A stretch of 62,063 nucleotides of DNA, filler included. It is 6 parts of 6 records of this genome, joined end to end, with 100 filler letters (N's around TTAATTAATTAA, not from the genome) between each part and the next. Parts side by side here need not be neighbours in the genome. Positions count along the whole stretch, not along the records: positions 8,546 to 28,435 come from DRR723986_32904; 5 more parts are not named here. One strand, given 5' to 3'. This document shows, piece by piece, positions 8,546 through 28,435 of this stretch. The notes below the pieces were generated by a model, which made no database searches, was not told the DNA's origin, and saw only the letters and a program-made list of their open reading frames with translations. The translations under genes were made by a program, and so were the position numbers. How positions within the stretch are numbered: position 1 is the first letter of the stretch; each line of letters begins with the position of its first letter.

Positions 8546-8633
8546 CTTGACCCCCTTTCGCGAGGCTTAGGGCGACGAGGGCATGGCGGATAAAGAGAAG
8601 GGGTGTAAGTGTAACACCGCCAGGGCGATGGGG

Positions 8634-9077
8634 TTAACGGGTAGAGCTTGACGTAGCAGAGGAAGGGTGATAGATCTCGTTCAAAGTGTGAAGATATACA
8701 CGGTTAAGTTTCAGTAACGCAATTCGAGAGTTGTGATCTTTAACTTGAGCGCGCCAGTTGCAAGCTGCGGCAAAAGGAGTAGTTAATACGCGTGAAAATT
8801 TTTGTAAATAGATAAGACATAGGGTTTCTTTATAAATAGAATGCGATAGGATAAGTGATGGATTGTAAATGTGACTTAAAAAGTTTATATCTTTAGAACC
8901 TTTACCAGCGACTGTTGCCGAAAAGGAATTGTAAACTTCTGTAATTTTTTTACCAAGCTTCAAGTTTTGGCTGATTCTTGGCAATATATTTTTAGCAAGG
9001 AACACGTAAAGTATTAAATAAATTCCTGCGAAAAAGCTAATCTGAGGATAGAAAGAAGTAATGTCAAATTGTGGCAT
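8634..9077 (-). CDS. atp8: Mitochondrial ATP synthase subunit 8
   Basis: MPQFD N-terminus, one TM helix, ILPRISQNLKL. Confidence 0.9.
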   Translation of the reverse strand: MPQFDITSFYPQISFFAGIYLILYVFLAKNILPRISQNLKLGKKITEVYNSFSATVAGKGSKDINFLSHIYNPSLILSHSIYKETLCLIYLQKFSRVLTTPFAAACNWRAQVKDHNSRIALLKLNRVYLHTLNEIYHPSSATSSSTR

Positions 9078-9635
9078 AGGGTTTATTCAAATGATTGTTC
9101 GCACCTAGCGCGAAGGGGGGATGCTGCGCAAATGCAACGCAGAGAGGTGTGACTGGAATGTACCACAATGCGTGGCGATCTGAGACACAGCGGTTGTTCC
9201 AACAAGAAGCAGCACAGCACCAAAAGCGTAACCCGTTCAAAAGGGGGGCAGAGGTTTTCGGAGTGTTAACTGCGACGCGCATCCCTTTGTTAAAGGGTTG
9301 GTTGAACCGAAGAGGGAGAGGGGGAATGGGAGTATAGATATTCGACATTCCATATCCCCTAGTGAATTGGGAATATGGAATGTAGGCAGAAAGCTCTCAA
9401 AAGGCGTGCTTCAAGAAGGGAGGGTCAGGAACATAAGCGGCGGAGCAGCAAGATGGGAACCAAGAACAAAAAGGAGGGAACATCCCGGCAATGACCTCCT
9501 TTCCTCTTTTGAGGGGAGAGCAGAGGAGACGTTTCGAAACCGAATGCGGTTTGTGGTGTTACAACGAAGTTCGGGAGGACGTATGTAAGCAAGAGCGGGG
9601 TTCCGCGGAAGCAGGCATTCGGCCGTCAATTTGGA

Positions 9636-25206: not shown

Positions 25207-28200
25207 TTAGGCAGAAACAGCAGGAGAAGATAAGGCTTTTTGTTTGTTAGTGAAAGCCGATGCTACGATAAAGAAAAAGAAAAGAGTACCTAATAGGTTG
25301 ATATAAGAACCGTAAGACGCAATAGCATTTCATTCTGCGTAAGCGTCTGGGTAATCTGGTATTCTTCTTGGCATTCCAGCTAAACCTAGAAAGTGCATAG
25401 GGAAAAATGTTAAATTCGCCCCAATGAAGGTTATTCAGAAGTGGATTTGTCCTAATGTTTCTGAATATGGAACTCCAATAATTTTCTCTAATCAGTAGTA
25501 AAACCCTGCAAATACAGCAAATACTGCACCAAGAGAGAGCACGTAGTGGAAGTGCCCTACAACGTAGTATGTCTTTTCGTTCAAGGGGGAACGACTTTTG
25601 GCTTTGTTTACACAAAAAAACGGACTGTGTTTTCATGGAGAGTGGGACACCTCTCACAGACCGCGTACAGCCTCTGAAGATCGACGTATTCCGTCGGCGG
25701 CCCCCAAAGGGCCACTCCAAAGAATCCGAGCGGACGGTCGTTTCCTGCAAATTGTCCATTTAGCGTGCCTTGTGGGGTCCGCCAACGCGGATCACAGGGG
25801 CGCAACACAAGCAGGAATCTCTTTGCATATAGCGGTGTTTAAATCACGACACATACTTTATTCTACATTTCAGCTTCCCAAATGCTTATTAGGATTTGGG
25901 ATGCCAAAGCCTCGCTGGGGTCGGGGCTTGGTTGTTCTCTGGCTGCTAGCAGCAAAGGCGTAGCCAAGCCAACACTTGCTGTAAGTTTTGTTTTTGTTTT
26001 ATCTTTGCTTTTAATCATTTTTATCCTATAGTGTATCGTGTAATAGAATATCGATACCAGCGTTAGACAATAAAATACCAGTTAATCCTCCGATAGTAAA
26101 TAAGAAGATAAATCCAACCGCAAACATCATTGGTACGTTTAATCTTAAGCGCCCTCCTCACATGGTTGCAAGTCATGAGAAGATTTTAATCCCTGTAGGC
26201 ACGGCAATAATCATTGTTGCTGCGGTGAAATAAATTCTGGTATCAACGTCTAACCCTACAGTATACATGTGGTGCCTGTGTACACAGGGTGTTGTGTTTG
26301 GTGACAAAATGTGAAACACCCTTTGTGTTGAGACAGAAAGGGCTATATCATAAACTATGCATCTGGGCTAAAGTGTTGTCTTCAAAGCTGTTCCATCTTG
26401 TCGCTAGCTACGCGTTTAGCAGTTATTAGCGGATACCGGGCCAAGTATGCAAAAAGTGTGTCAAATGCTCGTTTCTTTGCAGGAGCCACGTTTCGCGTTG
26501 AAGTTAATGTTCGACTTGTGCAAAGCACATAACGCTCCATGTCTGCACAGGCACGTCTCTGCTCTATGGTACCTGCTTGGAAGATGTTTACGACAGTGCG
26601 CAAAAACTCACCCTCGCCTTTTTGATCGAGAATAAAACGCAAGGAAAGCGCTGTTGACTTTTCCGGGTCAGAAACATTAAAACAGCCTTCCGCATCGATT
26701 AAGCCGGAAAGTCACGCGTTATCCAAGCCTCACGGTTGGGCAGAATTGTGCGCGTTGCCGGAAGCATTGGTCACACTAGAGGAACAAGCTTTGTGCCGAA
26801 CAGCACCCGGTCTTTTTCTGTAAGTTTCAGCTCAAACATGAAATCGTCTCTTTGTCTTGTTTAAAACTAATCGACCGTCAAAGATTTGAATCAAACGTGC
26901 AATTCCGTTTAAATCAGACACAATATATCGAAAGTATGTCGTTCCTTGCGCAGTGTTTTGATATTTGCTAACACTACCAATGCCTAGCATGCTTTGAATT
27001 GTGTAGAGGGCTTGGGGATCTTTTTGGTTGATTATAAAGTCATGTCGCGGAGATTTTCCAACGACACCACCTTTGTTTTTATAATAGTTCACTCCGAAAG
27101 AGCCATCGCCCTCGGAAAAGCCGACAAATCAATCTATAAAATTCTTGTCCAGATACTCCGTCTGAATGTTTTGTGTTGTGGTTTTTAGATTCATGTCCCA
27201 ATAGTGACACAGATGCAAAGTTTTTTCGCGTATAGTCTCTGAAGAGCCCGGTTGCGGGTTTCCTGCTGATTATATTGAGCTGCAAAGCGCAGGAGCTGTA
27301 TACAAGCAAAAGCGTCCGATTCTGCGAGTGCTCGATCAACTTTGTCTGTCGCTCCCTTCGGCTGATAAGTTCCAGCATACAGCGAAATTTTTTCGTCTTG
27401 TCTCGAGACAAAACGGGGCCCACCAAGTTAAGCCCATACTAAAAATCCAAGAATACCAATAGATAACATGGCATAAACCATTCCAAGATACGATAAGTGG
27501 ACCATTTCTTTATCAGTTTGGTTTTTGGGAGGTTTTGGGGCTCCAAAGTTTTCGAAAACTGACAACAAACATATGGCCTCTGAGATTCCAGTGCGCAGCG
27601 CAACCTCATCGTGGTGGGCATTATTGCCACGACTGTGGCCTTTGTTCGAAAGAACAACGCCATTTCCGAAATTCTTCAATGTTTCTGCGATTGACCGAAG
27701 GCAGGCAAATCCTTTTCGAGCCAAAGACGGCAAAAAACACACTCGAAGAGCGCGCGTTTGGTTATCTGCAAGTTGCCGAGTAGCGTGGCGTTTGGGAGCG
27801 GCAGCGGGCAAGCATTCTGCAGAACGGTGGTTTCGCCCCTTTTGGCTTCTTGCATATAGTTTGTTGCGTGGAGATGTTGTGGTTTAAGAAAAACCGTTTT
27901 GATCCCCAAGGGCCATCTTGACCGAATACAGGCTTTCTTGAATAAGTTGAAATAACATGGCTTATAATACCGAATCCAGGTAATATTAGAATATAAACTT
28001 CTGGCAAATTGATGCAGGTTTCCCTACACTTTGGACTATATAATATATTTCTTACGTTCCATTCTCTTCGGTGGGCATTCAAATGGGGCCCCATTCCCGC
28101 CGCGGGTCCGCGGAGGGCATTGGAAACGAAACGGAACAAATATCTTTGCGTATAGTCTCTGAGGATTTTTTGCATGCAAAAAAGGTTTCCTGCCGATTGC

Positions 28201-28276
28201 CCCAAATGTGGGGGATTCCAGCATACAGCAAAGTTAAAGGACACCCAGTTTATATAAAGTTGATGTCCAAAGAATC
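25207..28276 (-). CDS. cox1: Cytochrome c oxidase subunit 1, 3' half; exons 28263-28276, 27921-28004, 27431-27490, 26035-26274, 25207-25572
   Basis: Spliced translation (W)[64 protein letters not shown]. Confidence 0.95.
25573..26034 (-). other. Group I intron in cox1, no intact ORF recognised
   Basis: Exon ends in U, intron ends in G; guide GUAUGUGUCGUG (25845-25856) pairs with both exon flanks; R TCAGAGGCTGTA and S AAACACAGTCC. Confidence 0.88.
26275..27430 (-). mobile_element. Group I intron in cox1 carrying a homing endonuclease gene
   Basis: P1 GGGCU/GGCCC, R TCAGAGACTATA, S ATGATATAGCCC, terminal G. Confidence 0.9.
26355..27194 (-). CDS. Double-motif LAGLIDADG homing endonuclease/maturase, 279 aa in code 4
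   Basis: [12 protein letters not shown] and [12 protein letters not shown] motifs in one frame once TGA is read as Trp. Confidence 0.9.
27491..27920 (-). other. Group I intron in cox1, ORF-less
   Basis: P1 GGU-CAAGAUG-GCC, R TCAGAGGCCATA, S AAGAAATGGTCC, terminal G. Confidence 0.87.
28005..28262 (-). other. Group I intron in cox1 between the His and Pro codons (site equivalent to yeast aI4), ORF-less
   Basis: P1 GGACAU/GUGUCC, R TCAGAGACTATA, S ATTATATAGTCC, terminal G. Confidence 0.88.
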
Positions 28277-28435
28277 CATACTCTTTGCACGTTGGCGCCA
28301 AAAGGCGGGCAATACGCATTGTACTTAATTTTCAAGGGTCTTTCGCCCCTATCCATATTAAGCCTTGAACGGCAGGCTCGACACACAAAGGCCTGCCGCA
28401 AGAGTCCGACTGTACATTAAGCATCATTTCAGACA
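28277..28435 (-). other. 3' part of another cox1 group I intron, truncated by the contig edge
   Basis: S-like TAATGTACAGTC; ends in G before the 14-nt exon. Confidence 0.7.

Follow-up and report, generated by a model that had tools for sequence, protein, structure and literature searches.

The window analysed here is a stretch of 62,063 nucleotides (nt) of DNA, made of six contigs joined by N44-TTAATTAATTAA-N44 spacers. Its positions 8546-28435 are exactly one entire contig of 19,890 bp, with a GC content of 44.9% and N spacers on both flanks. This contig is very probably a true mitogenome fragment from an uncultured protist, placed by a binning program in a bacterial metagenome-assembled genome. 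It reads UGA as tryptophan. Sequence comparisons place its organism in a diverse clade that is common in environmental data and nameless in the collections searched.

The five other contigs (window 1-8445 and 28536-62063) have GC contents of 40-58% and carry long open reading frames (ORFs) under translation table 11. Their domains are of bacterial type, including an autotransporter beta-domain, a GH108 lysozyme, PMT_2 and a P-type ATPase, among others. The original prediction, made from the letters of the sequence, had spoken of a protist mitochondrial fragment hidden among bacterial contigs, and both halves of that description stand. In practical terms, the contig is a contamination and should be taken out of the bacterial bin. 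Left there, its tufA, its ribosomal protein genes and its five tRNAs would be attributed to a bacterium. The wide spread of GC among the other five contigs makes the bin itself appear heterogeneous, and it may contain more than one organism.

Twelve organellar protein genes had been predicted on one strand. Pfam, under a table 4 reading, finds exactly twelve mitochondrial protein genes above its cut-offs, all on the minus strand: atp8, nad11, rps13, rpl6, tufA, rpl11, nad6, cox2, rps8, rps2, rps14 and the 3' half of cox1, to which a LAGLIDADG_1 ORF must be added. In the direction of transcription their order is cox1-trnN-rps14-trnW-rps2-rps8-cox2-(ORF/spacer)-nad6-trnA-trnF-rpl11-tufA-trnY-rpl6-rps13-nad11-atp8. 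The genes would presumably be transcribed as a long one-strand precursor that is processed at the tRNAs. Five of these (Tyr, Phe, Ala, Trp with anticodon CCA, and Asn), again all on the minus strand, were found by ARAGORN and Rfam alike and, as foreseen, none of the five has an encoded CCA tail. On the plus strand of the contig, nothing was recognisable by Pfam, ARAGORN or Rfam. Exons and tRNAs together make up about 59% of the contig. Rfam, searched over the contig at E<=0.1, returned no 5S rRNA, tmRNA or RNase P, and no intron match beyond the one in cox1 described below.

UGA encodes tryptophan in this contig (genetic code 4), because TGA stands at invariant tryptophan positions of Cox2, because the genes terminate in TAA or TAG, and because the frames are free of internal stops under table 4. 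In an alignment of 14 Cox2 sequences, the contig has TGA at each of the invariant tryptophan columns W87, W128 and W190. All 12 gene ends that were checked are TAA or TAG. Across 14 delimited frames, 28 TGA codons were counted against 18 TGG; rpl6 was counted here from an upstream TTG, and starting it at its ATG removes two TGA and one TGG. Under table 4, internal stops are absent from thirteen of the 14 frames, and the fourteenth, a cox1 exon, had been delimited out of register. The earlier claim that the frames are intact only if TGA is tryptophan was therefore correct.

The relatives of the contig were sought with its Cox2, TufA and Nad11 proteins, and the figures given here refer to the best 120 hits for each. 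For Cox2, the 17 best clusters are environmental and nameless, with 69-79% identity. Among named sequences, identities are 65% for Jakoba bahamiensis, 65% for Ancoracysta, 64-68% for cryptophytes, 65-67% for Prototheca and 62% for Reclinomonas. The organism had been thought possibly unsampled, and no named mitogenome protein returned comes near identity: the best named match is 68% identical for Cox2, and about 50% in the Nad11 alignment. A scan of a prokaryote genome collection with the Cox2 alignment reached 59% at best among the 596 confirmed matches listed (the window's own contig was not among these), and the best 80 were mostly alphaproteobacterial. Cox2 is closer to named mitochondria, at 62-68%, than to any of those listed matches. 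A scan of viral contigs gave two loci only, both distant (55-60%).

In a quick maximum-likelihood tree of this single gene (121 rows, being the best 120 hits and the contig's own Cox2), the contig falls among mitochondrial sequences, inside a clade of 19 rows with a support of 100 in the Shimodaira-Hasegawa-like approximate likelihood ratio test (SH-aLRT), a stem of 0.74 and no named member. TufA gives a similar picture. We count 81 clusters at 75-87% identity to it out of the 120 listed, none with an organism name. Compared with 201 genomes from the class of G001 (Lacibacterium aquatile), TufA is 67-72% identical; since the maximum is 72%, the set at 75-87% is nearer than any sampled bacterium.

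Nad11 adds a structural signature. The gene (9636..12647, minus strand) encodes 1003 amino acids (aa), contains 6 TGA, and matches seven NuoG/NDUFS1 Pfam domains; it is enlarged by in-frame insertions. Alignment places an insertion of 128 aa (9918..10301) after Reclinomonas residue 621 and one of 52 aa (10752..10907) after residue 486, both at positions shared across the clade. The top hits are nameless and, like the contig's protein, unusually long (772-1040 aa). Both insertion sites are occupied in 13 of 13 of these nameless hits, against none of the seven named sequences compared (four jakobids, Meteora, Meloidogyne and Crassostrea). In the relatives, the insertions measure 28-158 aa after residue 486 and 37-128 aa after residue 621. 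The two sites could act as a molecular marker for the clade. A UniRef entry of Nad11/NDUFS1 labelled Meloidogyne incognita (P0270, 875 aa) outscored all jakobids; it has a 137-aa insertion of its own at a different site, and lacks those of the clade.

The relatives are not confined to short fragments. A longest-contig size of 84,044 bp is attached to TufA P0147 and Nad11 P0262 alike, one of 49,063 bp to Cox2 P0253 and Nad11 P0383, and one of 24,589 bp to Cox2 P0003 and TufA P0182. Because the same sizes recur in the tables for the three proteins, the relatives are mitogenome-sized molecules with the same gene set. Two further contigs of relatives, of 57,780 and 35,734 bp, are likewise known through their proteins. 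These longer contigs were not among the loci listed in a scan of metagenomes with the Cox2 alignment, which did deliver two close relatives, L001 (2.2 kb) and L002 (4.0 kb), among its best 80 loci. RNA libraries from freshwater and outdoor sources contain relatives as well.

L001 and L002 have Cox2 proteins 71-72% identical to that of the contig, a GC content of 44-47%, and TGA in cox2. Both share with the contig the order trnN-rps14-trnW-rps2-rps8-cox2-nad6-trnA. The support for the Cox2 clade, this common gene order, the two Nad11 insertion sites and a GC content of about 45% are the reasons for assigning the organism to the environmental clade.

The same two loci are compact by comparison. 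Rps2 has 176 aa in L002 (ORF 1421-1951) against 396 aa in the contig (22909..24099, minus strand, matched by PF00318 in two stretches). Further, cox2 and nad6 abut in L002, while about 1.1 kb lies between them in the contig. Relative to these two compact relatives, then, the contig's genome is bloated by in-frame expansions of its proteins and by spacers. A repeat search found no dispersed repeat family that accounts for the extra DNA. The region between cox2 and nad6 may be an ORF or simply spacer: a frame of 304 codons (20138..21052, minus strand) has no Pfam match and is absent in L002. Long open frames occur on the non-coding strand as well (14579-15799 on the plus strand, for example), and the openness of the 20138-21052 frame is therefore weak evidence for coding. 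Another apparent large internal expansion is that of rpl6 (13744..15333, minus strand), which would encode about 529 aa from a probable ATG start at 15333. Here, PF00347 covers only the C-terminal part, and the L6-like character of the N-terminal stretch is a judgement by eye.

The cox1 gene, at the upstream end of the contig, is split by no fewer than five introns whose borders are of group I type; Rfam recognises one of them, and another encodes a LAGLIDADG homing endonuclease. Group I introns had been part of the original prediction. Reading along the minus strand, the contig opens with the 3' part of an intron cut at the contig end (28277..28435), in which there is no Cox1-like frame. A candidate micro-exon of 14 nt (28263..28276) follows, and then a group I intron of 258 nt (28005..28262), for which RF00028 matches at 28012-28272 with 51.4 bits, against a gathering score of 50. 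The next exon (27921..28004, delimited by Pfam and by its borders) precedes an intron of 430 nt (27491..27920), an exon of 60 nt (27431..27490) and an intron of 1156 nt (26275..27430) with the LAGLIDADG_1 ORF at 26355-27194 (PF00961, E 6e-26). An exon at 26035..26274, an intron of 462 nt without an ORF (25573..26034) and the last exon (25207..25572, its border ambiguous by 3 nt) complete the gene; PF00115 matches both of these exons.

The three complete introns other than the 258-nt one have no Rfam match at E<=0.1. The 1156-nt intron does have two short core-like motifs in common with the Rfam-positive intron. Each of the four complete introns also fits the group I pattern of a U just before the 5' splice site and a final G, in one case within the 3-nt ambiguity of the joint.

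These borders are fixed by contigs from RNA libraries. X2, X3 and X4, which come from three libraries in two studies and are 90-95% alike to the contig, skip 462, 1156-1159 and 430 nt, with joints at 25569/26032 (X3, X4), 26271-4/27431 (X2, X3, X4) and 27490/27921 (X2, X3, X4). A DNA run, X1, has none of the three exon joints. When the exons are joined at those places, they give an uninterrupted, canonical C-terminal half of Cox1, 248 residues long. The skipping contigs could derive from spliced transcripts of close relatives or from relatives without such introns; the exon borders are fixed either way. Against reading them as a record of splicing in the contig's own organism stand two points. 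At 90-95% they represent relatives, and RNA libraries can, of course, hold DNA. Splicing and transcription of the contig itself are in this sense predictions.

The micro-exon comes from the same comparison. The X2 contig runs on upstream of 28001 with sequence for QHLFWFFGHP. Of that upstream exon, only the last 15 nt recur on the contig (28276-28262), flanked by G| and |C, and the rest has no counterpart there. The fifteenth nucleotide is a C common to both, being the first base of the intron in the contig and the start of the Pro codon in X2. Positions 28276-28263 would then be a 14-nt micro-exon (ending ..FFGH) between two introns. The truncated Cox1 had been offered as a clue to the lineage. 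Because the contig ends within an upstream cox1 intron, the truncation is an artefact of the contig end and carries no such information.

The expansions in the proteins are probably not introns. They are in frame and free of stops, and a 2002-nt RNA-library contig from X2 spans nad11 from 10622 to 12609 without a large skip; for these reasons we take the expansions to be translated. The contigs that are 90-95% alike also allow a small count of constraint, made by us on the 40 rows shown of 646 differences. Third codon positions account for 12 of 14 differences outside the 128-aa Nad11 insertion, but for 5 of 14 within it. The pattern points to purifying selection on the conserved parts of the proteins and to loose constraint on the 128-aa insertion.

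To which lineage might such a mitochondrion belong? Mitochondrion-encoded tufA has, according to the text available from one source, been published for jakobids, Tsukubamonas, Marophrys, Microheliella, Meteora and Vermamoeba only (bioRxiv 10.1101/2023.08.13.553137). A gene reported, in that text, from just six lineages here marks an environmental clade of many members, with relatives on contigs up to 84 kb.

One of the six provides the leading guess. The available text on the mitochondrial DNA of Marophrys sp. SRT127 describes a genome of 44.7% GC that encodes tufA, reads UGA as tryptophan with no tRNA gene for that codon, and has 19-20 group I introns with LAGLIDADG ORFs (PMC6425028). Of the six lineages, Marophrys alone is described with this whole set. 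The contig, at 44.9% GC, likewise reads UGA as tryptophan, encodes tufA, has group I introns and a LAGLIDADG ORF, and lacks a tRNA cognate to UGA; both genomes are gene-rich, with nad11 and many rps and rpl genes. Because the only published centrohelid mitogenome matches every unusual feature that can be compared from the text, we tentatively suggest that the organism belongs to Centrohelida, or to a relative within Haptista.

Several points weigh against a centrohelid. None of the searches with Cox2, TufA and Nad11 had a centrohelid protein in its top 120, which may reflect distance, the word and length filters of the search, or the content of the collections. The comparison with Marophrys was drawn from the text of the paper, not from its sequence. 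The nearest named Cox2 proteins are those of cryptophytes, jakobids, Ancoracysta and green algae, and in the quick single-gene tree the Cox2 clade joins, weakly (SH-aLRT 88), a group containing cryptophytes. Finally, the 20-kb contig has no rRNA gene or nuclear marker.

It is also quite possible, though on balance doubtful, that the organism represents a lineage without any sequenced mitogenome, either a deep branch not seen before or an as yet unsampled group beyond Haptista, Amoebozoa and Discoba. The long stem of the Cox2 clade (0.74, at a support of 100 and with no named member) would fit such an origin, as would the absence of the Nad11 insertions from all seven named sequences and of an organism name from all 20 clusters looked up. 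However, nameless entries in a collection are weak evidence, and all of the unusual features are already found together in the Marophrys genome, as its available description has it. If the organism is a centrohelid, the clade would greatly widen the sampling of a group with one published mitogenome. If it is not, the clade is a lineage without any reference.

Other known groups fit less well. Jakobids (Reclinomonas, Jakoba, Seculamonas, Andalucia) also have tufA, nad11, rpl11 and rps2; their Cox2 proteins, at 62-65%, are among the closest that carry a name, and their Nad11 proteins score high within the named hits. However, the available part of the relevant source lists them as not using UGA for tryptophan (PMC7027106), they keep a bacterial operon order where the order in the contig is scrambled, and they have no Nad11 insertions. 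The genetic code and the gene order together exclude a jakobid origin. Ancyromonads, annotated with table 1 and with no mention of tufA in the portion of text available (PMC12086354), and telonemids, with a GC content of 26.5% and tufA likewise not mentioned in the accessible text (PMC12432456), are excluded on these grounds of code, GC or gene content. Haptophytes have UCA tRNAs, and tufA is missing from their mitogenome, in the part of the source at hand (PMC9551565).

The original prediction had leaned towards an amoebozoan-like organism. This is improbable, including for an amoeba resembling Vermamoeba. The genes of the contig do all lie on one strand, as is typical of Amoebozoa, and UGA encodes tryptophan in Acanthamoeba. 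A review, in the part available, describes amoebozoan mitogenomes as mostly one-stranded, with cox1 group I introns that hold homing-endonuclease genes. Further, tufA is reported in the mitochondrial DNA of Vermamoeba (Hartmannella) vermiformis (GU828005), again from partial texts (PMC3590771, PMC7194472). Nevertheless, the best 120 for Cox2 and for Nad11 include no sequence with an amoebozoan name; the named protists in them comprise jakobids, Ancoracysta, Meteora, cryptophytes and green algae. In the contig, cox1 and cox2 are far apart and unfused. Amoebozoan mitogenomes are, in addition, generally known as AT-rich, as against the 44.9% GC of the contig.

Two origins other than a mitochondrion have next to nothing to recommend them. 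A bacterial endosymbiont with a tiny genome that reads UGA as tryptophan could, of course, have tufA, ribosomal protein genes and respiratory genes, and the contig's TufA does share 67-72% identity with EF-Tu from the 201 genomes sampled; but the atp8 of eukaryotic (YMF19) type, the group I introns and LAGLIDADG ORF in cox1, a Cox2 nearer to mitochondria than to any of the 596 prokaryote matches listed, and a scrambled gene order punctuated by tRNAs make it hardly credible. A nuclear copy of mitochondrial DNA, or a chimeric assembly, is equally hard to credit: nothing was found in its favour (the contig ends are uninformative), and against it stand the frames intact only under a mitochondrial code, the third-position bias in the differences from relatives (40 of 646 rows), the gene order common to two independent metagenome contigs (L001 and L002), and DNA-run pieces from X1, which may be the source sample, that are >=99% alike along the contig in 47 of 72 cases.

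The contig being taken as mitochondrial, its decoding of UGA presents a puzzle. The sole trnW (24131..24203, minus strand, called by ARAGORN and Rfam) has the anticodon CCA, yet TGA is the commoner tryptophan codon, and no tRNA-Trp with anticodon UCA is found on the 20-kb contig. At the same locus, the anticodon is CCA in the contig and in L002 (1235-1308), and UCA in L001 (279-353). Despite its CCA, L002 uses 6 TGA against 1 TGG in cox2. In the trnW of the contig, the uppermost position of the anticodon stem is an A27/G43 mismatch, and a Watson-Crick 27:43 pair is missing from all three trnW genes.

There is a precedent for a shortened stem. A tRNA-Trp(CCA) with an anticodon stem of 4 bp reads UGA in Blastocrithidia, in Condylostoma and in some bacteria, according to the available text of PMC13092985. 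Two of the three trnW genes here, those of the contig and of L002, resemble this system in keeping CCA under a code where UGA is tryptophan, with 27:43 unpaired. As a specific explanation for the reading of UGA, however, the short stem is weakened by a control of 31 trnW(CCA) genes from other mitochondrial loci without TGA in cox2, 10 of which also lack a 27:43 pair. By our reading of the sequences, trnA and trnN of the contig lack it too.

Alternatively, C34 may be edited or modified, or a second trnW may lie elsewhere in the genome. Kinetoplastid mitochondria edit the tRNA-Trp anticodon from C to U, as cited in the portion of PMC13092985 available. The likeness is that there, too, a CCA gene serves a code with UGA as tryptophan; the difference is that the kinetoplastid tRNA is imported from the cytosol, whereas the tRNA here is encoded in the mitochondrion.

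A broader reading, unlikely but worth stating, is that a large clade active in nature has mitochondria with tufA and with UGA as tryptophan, in which the encoded trnW has switched between UCA and CCA at one locus while the use of TGA continued undiminished. If there is no second trnW, UGA would on this reading be decoded by a CCA tRNA in the mitochondria of the clade, possibly by way of an anticodon stem unpaired at its top, in the manner of Blastocrithidia, or through editing or modification of C34 in an organelle-encoded tRNA. In the literature searched, no description was found of a Blastocrithidia-type mechanism for a mitochondrial tRNA. The change between UCA and CCA at a single tRNA locus, in genomes that read UGA as tryptophan, offers a concrete and testable case of how organelles decode a reassigned stop.

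The remaining genes, all on the minus strand, call for little comment. In order of their positions, they begin with atp8 of YMF19 type (8634..9077; PF02326, E 4.7e-07; ATG start) and rps13 (13158..13538; PF00416, E 4e-24). The tufA gene (16732..17946), which encodes an EF-Tu of 404 aa with three EF-Tu Pfam domains and contains no tryptophan codon, is followed by rpl11 (18256..18699; PF03946 and PF00298), nad6 (19154..19858; PF00499, E 8e-37), cox2 (20988..21815; PF00116 and PF02790), rps8 (22212..22754; PF00410) and rps14 (24325..24651; PF00253). The tRNAs other than trnW, each called by ARAGORN and Rfam, are trnY(GUA) at 16276..16361, trnF(GAA) at 18708..18781, trnA(UGC) at 18943..19015 and trnN(GUU) at 24901..24976. 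In the spacer between nad11 and rps13, a 17-nt tandem repeat is present in 3.1 copies (12784-12837).

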